Shown here: piece after piece, positions 1,979 to 46,573 of the stretch
Numbering within the stretch: the stretch's first letter is position 1
Layout of the letters: each line of letters opens with the position of its first letter
NCBI GenBank assembly: GCA_027484685.1
Contig: JAIXSO010000026.1
Span: 18,406-82,405, forward strand
Direction: 5' to 3'
Source: Bacteroidota bacterium
Lineage (GTDB): Bacteria; Bacteroidota; Bacteroidia; UKL13-3
Length of the DNA stretch: 64,000 bases
The notes under the pieces: model-generated
Databases searched by the model: none
Told to the model about the DNA's origin: nothing
The model's input: the letters and a program-made list of their open reading frames with translations, nothing else
Program-made: the position numbers and the translations under genes

Positions 1979-3110
1979 GTTATTATTTGCAATCATATTG
2001 TTTTTTTTAGTTGGCTATGCAAAAGCCAATAACGATAGTTTGTTGTACAAACGAACCAGTTATTTTTTACGCGCAAGTTTGCATAACGGTTCCATTTTTG
2101 CTCATTCTAAGCGAGTTGATTATTCAGCCAATGCGCCTGTTTTGGGTTTTGAAATTGAATTAATACGGCAACGATTAGACAATTTAGATGCCCATTATAA
2201 CCAAAAAGGTTTTGTATCTGGATTTGGACTTAATTTTTTCTATATCAATAACACTGTTATAAAAAATAATGTAAACGCGTTTTATACCCTTGAATCAAAT
2301 GTTTTAAAAACACAAAAATTAAACTTAGCAGTTAAAGCTTGTGCAGGTTTAAACTTTATTTCAAGTCCTTACGATTCGGTAAACAATCAAATCAATTGGT
2401 CGTACAGCAGTTATGTAAATGCTTTTTTAGCGTTGGGTTTAGTAGCTAATTTTCAACTCAATAATAATCAATCAATTGGTGCAAGATTGGCTTTTAATCA
2501 TTTTTCTAATGGGGCTATTAAAGATCCTAATTTAGGAGTTAATTTTTTTACAGGGGCATTGAGTTATCAATTTAAAATAGCTGATAATGTGAAACGTCCT
2601 TTAAATTTAAAACGAAGACTTAAACGATTTGAAGGAAGACCAAATTTACAGTTTACGGCTTTTGCTACTTATAAATCATCAACCGTTAATACCGAAAAGT
2701 TTTATTTAATAAATGGATTTGCTGCAAGTTATAATTTGCCATTTGGTGTAAAAAAAGGCCATAGTTTAGCAATAGGAGTAGAGTGGTTAGAAGATAGAGC
2801 CATTTCAGAATTATTTAATCATGCAAAAAGAACAAATGCAAATAATCAACGAGTGGGAATTACCGTTGGGCATGAGTTTTTGTTTCATCAGTTTACTTGG
2901 GGACAATATTTGGGTTATTATATTTTTAAAGATATTCCTGAAATGGATAATATTTATCACAGACACACCATAGCTTATAAACTAACCAAAAGTTGGAGCA
3001 TTGGTATATCGTTATTGGCTAATAACCAAAAAGCTAATTTTACCGATTTGCGGTTAACCTATAAATTAGTAAATAGAAAAAAGCCAGCTTGTATGTTGCC
3101 TGATTTTTAA
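1971..3110 (+). CDS. PagL-like lipid A deacylase / acyloxyacyl hydrolase domain protein
   Basis: Signal peptide and beta-barrel-like composition. 'NHFSNGA' matches the PagL catalytic H-x-S-N motif. Has a C-terminal extension relative to canonical PagL. Confidence 0.5.
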   Translation: MHKLLFAIILFFLVGYAKANNDSLLYKRTSYFLRASLHNGSIFAHSKRVDYSANAPVLGFEIELIRQRLDNLDAHYNQKGFVSGFGLNFFYINNTVIKNNVNAFYTLESNVLKTQKLNLAVKACAGLNFISSPYDSVNNQINWSYSSYVNAFLALGLVANFQLNNNQSIGARLAFNHFSNGAIKDPNLGVNFFTGALSYQFKIADNVKRPLNLKRRLKRFEGRPNLQFTAFATYKSSTVNTEKFYLINGFAASYNLPFGVKKGHSLAIGVEWLEDRAISELFNHAKRTNANNQRVGITVGHEFLFHQFTWGQYLGYYIFKDIPEMDNIYHRHTIAYKLTKSWSIGISLLANNQKANFTDLRLTYKLVNRKKPACMLPDF

Positions 3111-3210
3111 GAGTTTTTATTTAAATAAATTTTCAAAAACACTTTTTCGTACCTAGGCTGGGTTGTTTAAATCAATTTACAAGCTTATTATCGCGAGTTA
3201 AAATATTTTT

Positions 3211-3924
3211 ATGGCAAAACTATCTATTATAATTCCTGCTTATAACGAAGAAGCAACTATTCATAAAATACTTGAAAAAGTACATCAGGTAAAATTAATT
3301 GATAATATTGAAAAGGAAGTAATTATAGTTAACGATTGCTCAAAAGATAATACTGCAGCTAAAATTATTGCCCTTAAAAACGAAAAGTACGAATACATAA
3401 AATTTGTAGAGCATACTGTAAATAAAGGAAAAGGCGCTGCTATTCATACTGGGATTAAAGAAGCAAGTGGTGATTATATTATAGTGCAAGATGCTGATTT
3501 AGAGTATGATCCAAATGAGTATAATATTTTACTTAAACCAATTGTTGATGGTTTTGCGGATGTAGTTTATGGTTCTCGTTTTATGGGAGGTAAACCTCAT
3601 CGTATTTTATTCTTCTGGCATTCAATTGGAAATGCAGTACTTACGTTTATGAGCAATATGTTTACCAATTTAAATCTTACCGATATGGAAACTTGCTATA
3701 AATTATTTAAGGCAGATATTATTAAAGGTATTCAATTTAAGGAAAACAGATTTGGTTTTGAGCCTGAAGTTACGGCTAAAATTAGCCGAATTGAAAACAT
3801 AAGAATTTACGAAGTTGGTATTTCGTATTATGGTAGAACTTATGCAGAAGGTAAAAAAATAAACTGGAAAGATGGTTTCAGAGCTATTTTTTGTATTTTA
3901 AAATATGGTTTATTTAAAGCCTAA
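3211..3924 (+). CDS. GT2 glycosyltransferase, Dpm1-like soluble polyprenol-phosphate sugar synthase
   Basis: 237 aa. 'IIIPAYNEE...DCSKDNT...[10 protein letters not shown]' GT-A DxD-type motifs. No C-terminal TM segment. Confidence 0.75.
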
Positions 3925-3942
3925 TTTTAATTATTTCTACTT

Positions 3943-5355
3943 ATGTTTAAATCTGTTATTTTCAAAAATTCCTATCATTGGTTAGTTTTAGTACTAATTT
4001 GCTGTGTAGTTGCCTTTAAATGGGAAGCACTTGGTTTGCCTTTTTTTTGGGATGAAGCTTGGGTTTATATGCCTGCCATCAGAACTATGGCGGAACAGGG
4101 TCCTAGTATTATGCCTGCAAGTATTGATCCTGATTTATATACTGGCCATCCGCTATTATTTTATTGTTTAGCTTCAAGTTGGATAAAATTTTTGGGTTAC
4201 AGTTTGTTTAAAGCTCATTTGTTTCCTTTACTAATTTCCATTTCACTTTTAATAAGTATATATATTATAGTTTTTAAATGGACAAATAGTTGGTTTTCAG
4301 CATTTTTATCGGTTTTGTTATTAGCCACTCAACCTATATTTTTAGCCCAAAGCACCTTTTTATTAATTGAAGTTTGGCTGGCCTTATTATTTTTATGGTC
4401 GTTTTATTTTTACTTTAACCGCAATTGGTGGGGTTTTTCTATAACTGTTGTGCTTGCATTATGGAGTAAAGAAAGCGCATTTTGCTTGGTTCCTGCTTTT
4501 ATAATAATTGCTATTATTGAACTATTATACAAAACCATAACGCCTAAAGTTTTTGTAAAAATAGCATTATGTGTAGTTGTATTATTTTCGATTGGTTTTA
4601 GCTTTTTCATTATTCAAAAAGCAAAATTGGGTTGGTTGTTTTTTCCTCGTCATGCCAATTGGATTACCATGGCCGATTTTTTTGATAAAATAGAAGGTTC
4701 AGTTTTAATCATTTTTGTTTCGCAAGGGCGTAATCTTATTTACTTAATAACTTTAGTAGTATCAATTGTAAGTTTTGTTTTTTTTAAAAATAAATTGACT
4801 AAAAACCATCAAATAAAGTTATTGGCATTTTTAGTAATTACTACCGGTTTTATGTTATTTGCCTCCATTAACTTTTTCTCAGCTAGGTATTTATTTGCGG
4901 TTTTCCCATTGTTAATGATTGGCTGCTCTCTTTTGATAACTTCTGTACACAAATCTATTTTTCAATATGTTGTAATTCCTGTGTTTGCTATTATTGGATT
5001 GGTAAATATTAATAATAGTATTGAACATCCATATTTTGCAGATGTAGAAGTAAATTATACACGATTACTTAAAGCTCAAGTTGAATTTTGTAATTACATG
5101 GAGAGTATTCAGCCAAATGAAAGTATTTATGCCCCTTTTTTGGCATATACTAATTTAACCAATCCTTATGCTGGTTTTGTGCAAAAAAGCTTGAAAAATA
5201 TTAACCCTGTTTTGTTAGATACCTCCAATGTTTATTACATCAATACCTCAAACGAAACTTGTAAAGAGTTGGACAGTATGATAGCTAATAAAAATGTTTA
5301 CTTGGTAAAAAGGTTTGAAAATCATCAAGCTAAAGTTGAATTGTTTAAAAGATAA
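3943..5355 (+). CDS. GT-C fold membrane glycosyltransferase (GT39/PMT_2, ArnT-like)
   Basis: 470 aa polytopic membrane protein. 'FWDEAW' DE motif in the first periplasmic loop as in PMT/ArnT. Immediately follows a Dpm1-like GT2. Confidence 0.55.
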   Translation: MFKSVIFKNSYHWLVLVLICCVVAFKWEALGLPFFWDEAWVYMPAIRTMAEQGPSIMPASIDPDLYTGHPLLFYCLASSWIKFLGYSLFKAHLFPLLISISLLISIYIIVFKWTNSWFSAFLSVLLLATQPIFLAQSTFLLIEVWLALLFLWSFYFYFNRNWWGFSITVVLALWSKESAFCLVPAFIIIAIIELLYKTITPKVFVKIALCVVVLFSIGFSFFIIQKAKLGWLFFPRHANWITMADFFDKIEGSVLIIFVSQGRNLIYLITLVVSIVSFVFFKNKLTKNHQIKLLAFLVITTGFMLFASINFFSARYLFAVFPLLMIGCSLLITSVHKSIFQYVVIPVFAIIGLVNINNSIEHPYFADVEVNYTRLLKAQVEFCNYMESIQPNESIYAPFLAYTNLTNPYAGFVQKSLKNINPVLLDTSNVYYINTSNETCKELDSMIANKNVYLVKRFENHQAKVELFKR

Positions 5356-39473: not shown

Positions 39474-42400
39474 TTGAAATTGTTACAAACAAGCATAATG
39501 AATAAAGAAACCCATATTCAAAATTATTTTAAAACGGTTAAAGCTGCTTCAAATGAACTTTCTAAAAAGGAAGCTTTTAAAGATTTATTGAATAGAATAT
39601 ATGCTAATGAGGAGTCTTATACAAAACTGATTGATAGAATGACCTTAGGTTCTGAAAAAGCCATTTTTAATATTCCAAAAGGTGATAAAAATAAAACAGG
39701 AAGGGCTGATACCAAATACAATCAAGTAATTATTGAATTTGAAAAAGACTTACGTAAAACTGGAGAACATGCCAAAGAACAATTAGCTGAATACTTTTTT
39801 GGAACTTATAAAAGTGGAGGAGATTATAACCTAACCTTAATTGCTACCGATTGCATAACTTGGAAAATATTTGTACCAAGTTTTGAAACCTTTGAAAACA
39901 TAAGCTCAATAAAGCTACGCGAAGTAAAATTGGAAGAGTTAAAAGGTGGAACTTTTGTTTTAAGCGAAAATAATGGCAATGATTTCTTTTATTTTATCGA
40001 CCGTTATTTGTTTAGAACGGAAGCTCAAAAAGCTACTTTAGAATATATTGAACAAGATTTTGGTTTACAATCTGCTGTATTCATCAACTCATTTAAACAA
40101 CTAAAAGAACATTTTAATGATGTAAAAAAATATGGTGAAGTGCAAGTAAGCTTTGAACAATGGCGTAAGTTTTTGTTTATAGCTTATGGTATAGAAGAAT
40201 TACCAGAAAATATATTTTTAGTACATACTTATTTAAGTGTTTTTGCTAAGATGCTTGCCTATACTGTTCTTACTGATGATGATTTTATTGACGACCAAGA
40301 GCTAGAGCAAATTATTAATGGAAGTATTTTTGAAACATTAAATGTAAAAAATTTAACTGACAATGACTTTTTTCATTGGGTAAAATCTGAACGAAGTTTT
40401 AGAGAACTAAAATCTGCTTTTAGGCAAATAGCCCTGGAGTTAAGTAATTATAGTTTTAAAAATGTAGATGAAGATGTTTTGAAAGGGGTGTATCAAAACT
40501 TAATTGATATTGATACTCGTCACGCTTTGGGTGAATACTACACACCCGATTGGCTTTGTGAAATGGTGGTAAGAGAAATGCCAATAAAAACAGATAGTAA
40601 AACATTAGACCCTAGTTGTGGAAGTGGTTCGTTTTTAAGAACAGTTATAGATAAACTTAAAAATGAAAATAAAACAATAACAGCAAATGAATTGGCAAAT
40701 AATGTTTATGGCATAGATATTCATCCATTAAGTGTGCAAATAGCTAAAACTACCTTACTTGTTGCTATTGGAAAAGATTTAATTCGAAAATCGAAAAAAC
40801 CAGTTAGTTTAAACGTATTTTTATCAAATACCATATTGATTCCTGATGGTGTAAAAAACCTATTTGGTGGTGATTTTACCTTAACTATTGATAGAGAAAA
40901 ATATAAACTAAATACCCAAGTTTTAGAAGATGATAAACTATTCGATGAAGCATTAAATGTAGCAGATGCTTTGGCAGAGTTAACCTTGGGTAAAAAGGCT
41001 GTTGACCAAACTACTTTTATTAATAATTTAAAGAAAAGTTATCCTTATGCACCTATTCCTGTATTAAACGATAGCTTGTATAAAATATATTTAGGTTTGA
41101 AAAGAACCAAAGAAAGCGGTAGAGATAGTATTTGGAAGTTTATACTTCAAAATATGTACAAGCCATATTTTTTAAAAGAAAGATTCGATTTTATAGTGGG
41201 TAATCCGCCTTGGTTTACTTGGAGTAGCGTTAAAAAAGAGGATTACCAAGATGAACTTAAAACACTTGCAGAAAGCTACTAAGTAATGCCTGAACGCAAA
41301 GCCAATTTTCCACACTTGGAAATCGCAGCCATTTTTTTAGCGCATTGCAGCAATTATTTTTTAAAAGAAAATGGTCAATTAGCATTTGTATTACCAAGAA
41401 GCTTTATGAGTGCTGACCAACATGAAAATACACGAAATGGCAAAGCCAAAGGATTTACCTTAACACAAATTTGGGATTTGGATGCTGTTACTAATTTATT
41501 TAGGGTGCCTAGTTGTGTTTTATTTTCCGAAAAGAAATTAAAAACTTCAGTAAGCCAATACCACAAAGGTATAAATGGAATAAGCTTTAAGGGGCGAATA
41601 AAAAAACATAATTGTAGTATAAAGGAAGTAGAAGATGCTGGAGTATTAACTCAAACCGAAAATACATTTTACTATACTACATTGGGAAAAAGCAGTGCTT
41701 TTAGTGTTTCTAAGCAATCAAAAAAAGGAAGTCAAAATAAAACGAGTTATTACAAAACTTCGTTTAAACAGGGAGCTACATTAGTGCCTCGAAATTTTTA
41801 TTTTGTAGAGCTAACACAAGAAGAGCCCGAAGATTGGGACGATAGGTTGATAAATATAAAAACCAGTTCTGAAAGCATGAAACAAGCCAAAAAACCTTGG
41901 AATGAAATAGACATGCACGGACAAATAGATAGCCAATATTTTTTTAGAACAGCTATTTCTAAAAATGTTTTGCCTTTTGTTTTGTATAATCCCGAATTGG
42001 TAATACTTCCTATAAAAATAAACCAAGAAAATAAACAAATAACCATGCAAACGCATGAGGAAATTTTGAAGGACGGTTACTATATCACAGCGCAATGGTT
42101 TAAGAATGTAGAAAATGTTTGGAATATTCTTAAAACTGAAAAAAATGAAAAAATTTCAAGCGGAAATTATTTGAATTGGCAAAACAAATTAACCGATCAA
42201 GATTTAAATAAAAAGTACATGGTACTTTATACTGCAAGTGCAAAAAATGCAAATAGCTGTGTGGTAAAACGGGAAGATTTAAAATTGGAATTTATAGTAG
42301 AAAGTACAACTTATGTATTTTTTTCAAACAATAAAAATGAAGCTTATTATGTTTCTGCTTTACTAAATTCAAGTGTTCCAAATGAATTAATGAAAGACTT

Positions 42401-44825: not shown

Positions 44826-45923
44826 ATGGATAAACTCATTCCAACATTTACTGATATCAGTAAATGGAACATAAACGTATATACTAATACGGGAGGTACA
44901 CGTAGCAAGCAAATTGCGGTGCATCCTGAAACTGATAAGGAATATTTTTTTAAAGGTTCTAAAGTAATTAAAGATACCAATGAAATACGTTATCCTACTG
45001 AATTTTGGTCTGAAATAGTTTCGTCAAAAATAGGTCAATATTTAGGTTTCGATATGCTTGATTATAATATTGGATTTAACCAAAATAATCAATTGCAAAA
45101 AATTGGTTGTCTTTCGAAATCAATGATTGAAAACTCTGAAAATAGATTAACAGAAGGAAAAATGTATTTGATGGGTTTTAATTCAAATTACAATCCAAAT
45201 TTGAAGGAACATCAGAGTTTATATACTTTTCAATTCATAAGTGAATCTCTTATAAGTTTTGATTTTGAACTATTTATCAATAAGGTAATAGAAGTTATAA
45301 TCTTTGATAGTATAATTGGCAATTCTGATAGGCATCAAGAAAATTGGGGAATAATTACTAACTATAACCACACCATAAGGGGTATAGATGCACATTTAGA
45401 AACTGAAGTTAAGAATTTTTTTACAAAACAAAAATTTCGTGTAGCTAAATGGTATTTAAAGCTAATTTCTAAAGCACAGATTAATATGAAAAAAATTCCA
45501 AAATCAATTTTATCTCAGCAATCATCATTTGCTCCAAATTTATTTGCTCCAATATATGATAGCGGTTGTTGCTTAGGGAGAGAAATTGAAGAGGAAAGAT
45601 TAAATAAAATGTTGCTAGATAATAATATGTTAGAAGCTTACGTTAGAAAAGGTGAATCAGAAATTCATTGGGATGGGTTTGAGAAAAAAAAGAAGCATTT
45701 TGAGTTAATTAATTTGGTTAAAGAAATACATAAATACCAAGTTTGTGAAGTTATTGATAGGGTAGTGAATAAATTCAAGAATGAAGATATACAAACAATA
45801 ATATTTAATATTGACAGAAATATTCCTCCTCATTTAAGCCAATATAAATTAGCAGATAATAGAAAAGAGTTAATGAATAAAATTATAAATTTGCGCATTG
45901 AAAAGTTGAAAGAGATAAGATGA
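44826..45923 (+). CDS. HipA/HipT-like serine/threonine kinase (toxin-type kinase core lacking the HipA N-subdomain)
   Basis: Catalytic-loop-like 'IIGNSDRHQENWGII' and 'FAPIYDSGC' correspond to HipA '(I)GNTD.H.KN(F/W)' and 'AP.YD' motifs. 365 aa. Confidence 0.6.
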   Translation: MDKLIPTFTDISKWNINVYTNTGGTRSKQIAVHPETDKEYFFKGSKVIKDTNEIRYPTEFWSEIVSSKIGQYLGFDMLDYNIGFNQNNQLQKIGCLSKSMIENSENRLTEGKMYLMGFNSNYNPNLKEHQSLYTFQFISESLISFDFELFINKVIEVIIFDSIIGNSDRHQENWGIITNYNHTIRGIDAHLETEVKNFFTKQKFRVAKWYLKLISKAQINMKKIPKSILSQQSSFAPNLFAPIYDSGCCLGREIEEERLNKMLLDNNMLEAYVRKGESEIHWDGFEKKKKHFELINLVKEIHKYQVCEVIDRVVNKFKNEDIQTIIFNIDRNIPPHLSQYKLADNRKELMNKIINLRIEKLKEIR

Positions 45924-46573
45924 AAGAGATAGGAAACATACATTTGTGTTGGCGTCAAGCAAAAGGATCCAATAGGATTCCCATAGGTACTATTAAACAT
46001 AGTGTTACAGGTGGAGTACGTTTCTCTTATAATCAGAATGAAGTAGCAAAAGCAAGAAAATTAGGTTTTCAGCATTACGAAGGATTTCCAGATATAACAA
46101 AGGTGTATGATGAAAATGTGCTAGAAATATTTGGACAGAGGTTAATTAAAAGTGAACGTTCTGACACAAGTGCCTTTTATGAATTTTGGGGAATAGATGC
46201 CCAATATAAAGATAACGATTTCTATATGCTTGCTTATACTCAAGGACTTTTACCAACCGATAACTATGAGTTTTTGGCAGACTTTCACCCAATGCCTAAT
46301 CTATCGTTTGTTTCTGAAATTACAGGTTTAACTGAAGCTAAGTTAGAAGCTGATTTGTTAAAAGTTGGAGATAAATTGACTTATAAACGAGAGCCAAATA
46401 ATGTCTTTGATAATAAAGCAATAGGTCTATACTTAGGAGAATTGTATTTAGGCCATGTTAAATTAATTCATAGTAGAGTGTTTTATAAAACAAATACCTT
46501 ATTAAAAGTTAGTGTTCATAATATTGAAAAGAATGGTTTCTTGAAAAGGGTATTTATTAAGATAAATAGTTAG
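45920..46573 (+). CDS. HIRAN-domain protein
   Basis: C-terminal 'LKVGDKLTYKREPNNVFDNKAIGLYL..LGHV' fits the HIRAN consensus (REP.NPYD.NAI.V....LG(Y/H)V). Start overlaps the kinase stop (ATGA). Confidence 0.65.
   Translation: MKEIGNIHLCWRQAKGSNRIPIGTIKHSVTGGVRFSYNQNEVAKARKLGFQHYEGFPDITKVYDENVLEIFGQRLIKSERSDTSAFYEFWGIDAQYKDNDFYMLAYTQGLLPTDNYEFLADFHPMPNLSFVSEITGLTEAKLEADLLKVGDKLTYKREPNNVFDNKAIGLYLGELYLGHVKLIHSRVFYKTNTLLKVSVHNIEKNGFLKRVFIKINS

Follow-up and report, generated by a model that had tools for sequence, protein, structure and literature searches.

A hipIN-type pair of kinase and HIRAN-domain genes in a low-GC block of a Bacteroidota genome, a candidate toxin–antitoxin module

Within a stretch of 64,000 nucleotides (nt) from a Bacteroidota bacterium of the lineage UKL13-3 (assembly GCA_027484685.1, contig JAIXSO010000026.1, positions 18,406 to 82,405; hereafter, the window), a gene for a short kinase of the HipA superfamily is followed directly by a gene for a protein with a HIRAN domain (Table 1). 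This pair is a real and intact Bacteroidota member of a published class of modules, termed hipIN in the literature and PDC-M03 in PADLOC, and we refer to its two products as the kinase and HipN. The genes overlap, the bases ATGA being common to the stop codon of the kinase (TGA at 45921–45923) and the ATG of hipN, just as in the initial annotation of this DNA, which had been made from the letters alone; both of the kinase motifs quoted there are also found, IIGNSDRHQENWG at residues 164–176 and FAPIYDSG at residues 240–247. The paired PADLOC models match both of the overlapping genes (PDC-M03A, E = 2.8e-58; PDC-M03B, E = 1.5e-23), and the Pfam matches of the window proteins on their own fall below the gathering thresholds (HipA_C, E = 0.016; HIRAN, E = 4e-4). 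Database homologues of the kinase number 998; the best 120 listed are near full length, nearly all between 350 and 370 amino acids (aa), and come from Bacteroidota wherever the source is named. A word-indexed search with the 217-aa HipN returned 357 homologues, the best 120 of them again near full length, and an exhaustive profile search gave a family of 746 clusters (50% identity), nearly all 210–240 aa long. Because of these hundreds of near full-length homologues, together with the PADLOC matches to the pair, the two open reading frames (ORFs) are not the product of chance. Scans for sigma-70 promoters and for terminators gave no excess over the shuffled expectation, although the sigma-70 model is unsuited to Bacteroidota promoters.

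Table 1. Coordinates of the kinase–HIRAN pair, its functional parts and the genes upstream of it, in positions of the window
Feature	Position	Strand	Evidence
hipI-type gene, putative toxin: short HipA-superfamily Ser/Thr kinase, 365 aa	44826..45923	+	ORF, PADLOC, profile, AlphaFold2/Foldseek
Gly-rich (P-) loop NTGGTRSK, residues 21–28	44886..44909	+	invariant columns, model, CtkA alignment
Catalytic loop GNSDRHQENW, residues 165–174	45318..45347	+	hhalign to E. coli K-12 HipA
Clade-specific helical insertion, ~55–59 aa, residues ~178–236, catalytic loop to Mg2+-binding motif	45357..45533	+	
Mg2+-binding motif IYDSG, residues 243–247; D245 is the Asp of the HipA-family APxYD motif	45552..45566	+	
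ATGA start/stop overlap (translational coupling)	45920..45923	+	sequence
hipN-type gene, 217 aa, whole ORF	45920..46573	+	ORF
hipN, N-terminal HipS-like domain, residues 1–~125; putative kinase-neutralizing or kinase-docking part	45920..46294	+	
hipN, C-terminal HIRAN domain, residues ~126–217, plus stop codon; putative DNA 3′-end binding module	46295..46573	+	
Type IIG restriction-modification gene, two ORFs (602 aa, 461 aa) split by an in-frame TAA	39474..42671	+	
Putative AbiC-like abortive-infection membrane protein, 383 aa	42679..43830	+	Pfam putAbiC, E = 2.9e-22
DUF4062 (TIR-like) protein, 319 aa	43843..44802	+	Pfam DUF4062, E = 5.6e-25

The AlphaFold2 model of the kinase has a predicted local distance difference test score (pLDDT) of 89.9 and a predicted template modelling score (pTM) of 0.89, and its 18 best Foldseek matches in the PDB all belong to the HipA superfamily: CtkA, Legionella HipT, E. 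coli HipA and E. coli HipT. The best of these is CtkA (E = 1.9e-9; TMt 0.78), which is also the sole significant solved relative when a 73-sequence profile of the kinase is run against the PDB (E = 1.6e-9). The assignment of the HipA fold rests on structure, because the hhalign comparison of the kinase profile with E. coli K-12 HipA covers the catalytic loop only (residues 154–176 of the window kinase with 295–317 of HipA); within this segment, D168, H170 and N173 of the kinase correspond to D309, H311 and N314 of HipA, and the catalytic Asp is, therefore, kept. Across 74 loci, conservation is at least 95% for all ten residues of the catalytic loop and for each of I243, Y244, D245 and G247 in the Mg2+-binding motif. 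The segment FAPIYDSG pairs with IAPIFDCGSCL in CtkA, and the HipA sequences of Table S1 in Gerdes et al. carry LAPLYD (PMC8262856). Towards the N-terminus, the Gly-rich loop has invariant residues at T22, G24, R26 and K28 and a nearly invariant one at S27, it aligns to the N-terminal GG...K motif of CtkA (the alignment begins at query residue 22 and CtkA residue 17), and its residues 21–25 form the sole low-confidence, flexible segment of the model; its Ser and Thr residues are candidate autophosphorylation sites. A further invariant residue, K43, is a β-strand lysine. With the Gly-rich loop as close to the N-terminus as residues 21–28, there is no room in the kinase for the N-subdomain-1 of HipA. 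The initial annotation had proposed a HipA-type kinase that lacks this N-terminal subdomain, as HipT does, and both points are borne out by the position of the loop and by the match of the model to HipT chains: the first gene encodes a HipT-like ‘core-only’ HipA-superfamily kinase with its Gly-rich loop, catalytic loop and Mg2+-binding motif intact.

Next to the active site, the kinase carries an insertion that is specific to the Bacteroidota clade and new in this analysis. In the model, it forms helices at residues 180–192, 198–220 and 226–235 (pLDDT 83–91). Its sequence is variable, with a conservation of 0.28 versus 0.62 and 0.57 in the flanking parts (74 loci), and so is its length: the spacing between the catalytic and the Mg2+-binding Asp ranges from 53 to 82 residues across the loci, compared with 23 in E. 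coli HipA (D309 to D332). The insertion falls opposite a gap both in CtkA and in a 289-aa phage kinase (see below), and it is on account of this segment that the window kinase, at 365 aa, is longer than the published HipI proteins (279–321 aa).

The model of HipN has a pLDDT of 91.3, and on this model, the protein is composed of a HipS-like N-terminal part and a true HIRAN fold at the C-terminus. The HIRAN part matches the HIRAN domain of HLTF (Foldseek E = 1.4e-4), and a profile detects the domain in 66 of 68 aligned family members, in agreement with the initial annotation of a C-terminal HIRAN domain in this protein. The HipN segment EPNNVFDNKAI aligns with DPNNPYDKNAI of HLTF, and conservation in the HipN family is 95% or more at N161, D164 and A167; in the HLTF structures, the Asp of this motif contacts the 3′-OH. 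The N-terminal part is predicted to comprise N-terminal strands, three helices and a last strand, which is the same topology as that published for HipS, whose three-helix subdomain contacts HipT (PMC10627512). In HipN, the three-helix subdomain lies at residues ~65–110, where R74, R80, D82, F89 and W90 are conserved. Searches of the PDB with HipN by phmmer and hmmsearch found no match to HipS or HipA, and hhalign gave no alignment of HipN with E. coli HipA alone. There is, nevertheless, a transitive link to HipS, in that a phage HIRAN protein aligns to the HipN family over both domains and itself matches the Pfam family Couple_hipA (E = 0.0014). A match of HipN to the co-chaperone CNS1 (E = 0.003) was rejected as spurious, since it overlaps the HIRAN region and is without structural support.

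The association of the two genes extends well beyond the window. A genome scan yielded 80 loci, all in Bacteroidota and spread over many families, and in 77 of these hipN lies directly downstream of the kinase gene on the same strand; of the remaining three, L044 and L076 are cut off by the end of the contig and of the locus, respectively, and L071 has a truncated kinase that stands as a lone fragment. The junction is a 4-nt overlap in 59 of the 77 loci and lies between −8 and +10 nt in most of the others, and a real stop codon separates the ORFs of the kinase and HipN in every one of the 77 loci that carry both. Moreover, the matrices of pairwise identity for the two proteins are correlated with r = 0.88, a value reached by none of 999 Mantel permutations. 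The kinase and HIRAN genes, whose coupling had been read from a single sequence, are thus co-conserved: they are translationally coupled, are passed on together and change from one defence-gene neighbourhood to another. A third conserved gene, such as one for a HipB-like helix-turn-helix (HTH) protein or a diDNase, was sought in 78 loci and none was found; the largest flanking clusters are present in at most 18 of the 78, and the largest of all, an aldehyde-dehydrogenase-like ORF, appears to reflect a conserved Flavobacterium-type local gene order. Three loci (L017, L052 and L070) carry a full-length hipN beside a truncated or interrupted kinase ORF, whereas the reverse, an intact kinase with a broken hipN, occurs at no locus; such one-sided decay would be expected of a toxin and its antidote.

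The two proteins are also linked by gene fusion. P0254, a metagenomic cluster of 560 aa, is an in-frame fusion of the kinase with the HipS-like and HIRAN parts, and is the sole fused cluster among the best 150 of the 746; together with the published single-chain protein HipL, it amounts to Rosetta-stone evidence tying the kinase to the HipS-like and HIRAN modules. Two other clusters have unusual compositions. P0251 is an apparent deletion chimera, in which the C-terminal part of the kinase is joined to HipN at about residue 52, and P0319 starts with an N-terminal part that contains an HExxH motif (HEFGH) and continues with HipN's C-terminal helices and HIRAN domain.

In the window, the pair closes a co-directional block of six ORFs, which encode, in order, a type IIG restriction-modification (R-M) system (two ORFs), the putAbiC protein, the DUF4062 protein, the kinase and the HIRAN protein. 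The gaps between the R-M, putAbiC, DUF4062 and kinase genes are 7, 12 and 23 nt, respectively. The block has a G + C content (GC) of 0.26–0.30, compared with ~0.37 in the housekeeping genes that flank it, clpB among them, and is apparently a small, horizontally acquired, low-GC defence island. Subunits of type I R-M systems also recur upstream of the pair at other loci; in 9 of 16 loci sampled from taxonomically diverse genera, the nearest upstream gene matches PADLOC defence models, mostly those of type I R-M systems. The DUF4062 protein, in which the last ~230 aa are unassigned, gives a weak match to the PADLOC model for ThsB, and is not conserved beside the pair at other loci.

Outside the Bacteroidota, a homologous pair is carried by phiCDKH02, a temperate phage of Clostridioides (L083; PP767789.1, 2453–4042), and comprises a 289-aa kinase with a HipA domain and, after a gap of 12 nt, a 235-aa HIRAN protein; hhalign relates the two to the window families with probabilities of 99.3% (kinase) and 98.0% (HIRAN protein). 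The pair adjoins the genes for the integrase, an ImmA/IrrE peptidase and XRE repressors, and its location beside the integrase and immunity genes points to a superinfection defence encoded by the prophage. On a conjugative plasmid of Oscillatoria nigro-viridis PCC 7112 (L082; pOSC7112.02, 3020–4750), there is an apparently orphan gene for a HipN-like HIRAN protein of 249 aa; the position of the kinase is taken by an unannotated 285-aa ORF, which by eye is transposase-like (IS630-type), and the kinase may have been replaced or lost.

The initial annotation regarded a kinase coupled to a DNA-end-binding module as an unreported toxin–antitoxin (TA) or defence architecture, and in this, it was mistaken. 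The hipIN module, consisting of a short HipI kinase and a downstream HipN with HipS-like and HIRAN parts, was defined by Gerdes, Baerentsen and Brodersen (2021, mBio; PMC8262856), who also proposed that HipN neutralizes HipI and that its HIRAN domain senses phage DNA ends, leading to abortive infection. PDC-M03 has been described as a two-gene HipA and HIRAN system (PMC13245101), and is a phage-defence candidate in PADLOC-DB v2; its architecture is identical to that of the window pair, to which both of its paired models match. A paper in Nucleic Acids Research (2025) places HipA–HIRAN clusters next to diDNase genes in Actinobacteria. Both the architecture and the hypothesis are, therefore, on record already, and the architecture has been found again here, for a class that is a predicted defence system. 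The window pair resembles hipIN in these features: the kinase comes first, is short, lacks N-subdomain-1 and has its Gly-rich loop near the N-terminus, the HipS-like and HIRAN protein lies downstream, and there is no HipB; the core motifs, the HIRAN C-terminus and the kinase-first bicistronic arrangement are, moreover, kept in the relatives. It differs in that it belongs to a large Bacteroidota clade, whereas the 14 published modules are from Actinobacteria, Firmicutes and Proteobacteria/Cyanobacteria (PMC8262856). This clade is new, as are the variable insertion in the kinase and the homologous pair on a Clostridioides prophage, and the size of the HipN family indicates that hipIN is far commoner than the modules first described would suggest. 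In addition, the HipS-like and HIRAN architecture now has structural as well as sequence support, and strict co-inheritance, toxin-like asymmetry of decay, R-M association and prophage carriage are documented for the pair.

Other HipA-family systems were also compared. HipBST of E. coli O127 and Legionella pneumophila provides the functional parallel, since HipS neutralizes HipT and acts near its Gly-rich loop (PMC10627512), but it can be ruled out as the identity of the locus: there is no tricistronic hipB–hipS–hipT and no stand-alone HipS of ~100 aa upstream, the gene in that position being for DUF4062, and neither HipB, another HTH protein nor a third conserved gene accompanies the pair. 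Moreover, the kinase gene comes first rather than last, and the HipS-like domain, which is joined to HIRAN in one protein, has an undetectable or marginal sequence similarity to HipS or the HipA N-terminus. Canonical HipBA is also ruled out, by the length of the kinase (365 aa rather than ~440), the position of the Gly-rich loop at residues 21–28 and the lack of HipB. HipL, a single chain of kinase, HipS-like and HIRAN parts (PMC8262856), has the same three modules in the same order and a rare fused relative in P0254; it is excluded by the two overlapping ORFs of the window, with a TGA between the kinase and HipN. A further analogue is the HipA-like kinase with DUF3037 (PADLOC PDC-M66), in which two genes again encode a HipA-family kinase toxin and a neutralizing partner that is not an HTH protein, and which has been shown by experiment to act as a stand-alone phage defence: deletion of the kinase abolishes defence, and deletion of the partner gene is toxic (PMC12548924). 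Its partner is, however, DUF3037 and not a HipS-like and HIRAN protein, and it is linked to the window pair by analogy only. Lastly, CtkA of Helicobacter pylori (JHP0940; PDB codes: 3AKJ and 3AKK), the closest solved relative of the kinase, shares the GNxDRH loop and the APIxDxG motif, but is without the ~55-aa insertion, and is named a proinflammatory kinase in its PDB entry. It is reportedly secreted and translocated into host cells, and we know of no HipS–HIRAN partner for it.

Taken together, these observations make it probable that the locus is a hipIN-type (PDC-M03) two-gene TA or abortive-infection module set in a small low-GC defence island. With HipBST and HipA–DUF3037 as analogues, HipN's HipS-like domain would dock at the site taken by N-subdomain-1 in HipA, and, near the Gly-rich loop, would keep the kinase in an inactive state. 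The HIRAN domain, again by analogy, would bind free 3′ DNA ends that arise from the entry, replication or degradation of phage DNA, and either this binding or the loss of HipN would release the kinase. The freed enzyme would then phosphorylate an essential factor of translation (probably, by the example of HipA and HipT, an aminoacyl-tRNA synthetase), and the infected cell would be arrested. The toxicity of the kinase, its neutralization and the binding of DNA ends are inferred; the precedents are the neutralization of HipT by HipS (PMC10627512), that supported for a HipA-like kinase toxin with its DUF3037 partner (PMC12548924), and the model of Gerdes et al. for hipIN itself (PMC8262856).

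Several findings weigh against this interpretation. No match to the Pfam family Couple_hipA was seen in the 68 HipN members, making the HipS-like assignment a structural one, and in hhalign, HipN aligned to an 11-sequence profile of the HipA N-domain with a probability of just 7% (E = 0.005, versus E = 0.06 for a control with the HIRAN half). For the suggestion in the initial annotation that the first ~120 aa of HipN could act by analogy with HipS, the predicted topology speaks in favour, and the comparison of sequences is marginal. Nor would a HipS-like fold on its own be proof of inhibition, because the equivalent subdomain of HipA belongs to an active kinase. As regards the HIRAN domain, the triad of R71, Y72 and Y73 through which HLTF contacts DNA is apparently not kept in a by-eye alignment (T138-E139-A140 in the window protein), and within the HipN family, the Phe position of the ‘NAF’ motif of HLTF varies, as Gerdes et al. 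had already remarked for bacterial HIRAN domains (PMC8262856); HLTF and Rad5 are eukaryotic fork-remodelling helicases that have no kinase partner. The loci with broken kinases (L017, L052, L070 and L071) are few and are all metagenome-assembled genomes, such that the breaks could be assembly errors. Lastly, we found no experimental test of hipIN or PDC-M03 in the literature searched, and Table 1 of Gerdes et al. gives ‘None’ under this heading for clade XI (PMC8262856).

The main rival to an antitoxin role is that HipN is an activating or targeting subunit. It would then be an obligate part of a split holoenzyme, with the HipS-like domain completing the kinase in trans, as N-subdomain-1 does within HipA, and the HIRAN domain bringing the active kinase to DNA 3′ ends to phosphorylate DNA-associated replication proteins of the phage or host. 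Similarity to the N-terminus of HipA is compatible with such an arrangement, single chains such as P0254 and HipL would be odd for a labile antitoxin, and no DNA-binding autorepressor comparable to HipB is present; furthermore, the position of hipN downstream of the kinase gene and its translational coupling favour a fixed stoichiometry. Nonetheless, we judge this unlikely, given that HipS neutralizes HipT in both of the split systems characterized (PMC10627512), that deletion of the partner gene is toxic in HipA–DUF3037 (PMC12548924) and that loci with a disrupted kinase and an intact hipN exist, whereas their converse does not, a pattern of toxin and antidote. A lesser probability still attaches to a plain addiction or stabilization TA system with no role in phage defence, in which the HIRAN domain would be a DNA-binding element that autoregulates the operon or stabilizes the island. 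The hip modules are, after all, classical type II TA systems (PMC8262856), and the module is found in an apparently horizontally acquired low-GC block as well as on a prophage and a conjugative plasmid; set against this, the ligands of HIRAN domains are DNA ends and not specific operators (literature cited in PMC8262856), the module repeatedly adjoins R-M and other defence genes, and PADLOC lists the pair as a candidate for phage defence. As for an inactive remnant or a mis-called pair of ORFs, the sub-threshold Pfam matches might be taken to point that way, but this explanation is effectively refuted, being scarcely credible for ORFs that are of full length relative to hundreds of homologues, have all their catalytic motifs intact and invariant, and give confident structure models.

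Returning to the favoured TA or abortive-infection module, an extension of it would have the HIRAN domain sense the free 3′ ends of phage DNA that is infecting or replicating and the HipS-like domain switch from clamping the kinase to releasing or activating it. Such a DNA-end-activated kinase, which in its logic could be a bacterial counterpart of Ku/DNA-PK, is a tentative proposal that we hold to be less likely than not; the idea of a DNA-end trigger is itself already present in Gerdes et al. (PMC8262856), and its demonstration would be new. Residues and constructs are now named with which to test the control of a HipA-family kinase by a DNA-end-binding module. Additionally, the ~55-aa insertion could confer on the kinase a substrate specificity other than that of HipA and HipT for aminoacyl-tRNA synthetases.

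A minor observation concerns the R-M gene at the head of the block. Its two ORFs cover positions 56–636 and 652–1088 of the 1100 in the PADLOC model REase_MTase_IIG, and are divided by an in-frame TAA at 41280–41282, which is followed by GTA ATG. The gene could be a pseudogene with a nonsense mutation or could encode an enzyme that is truly split, or else the TAA could stem from an error in sequencing.

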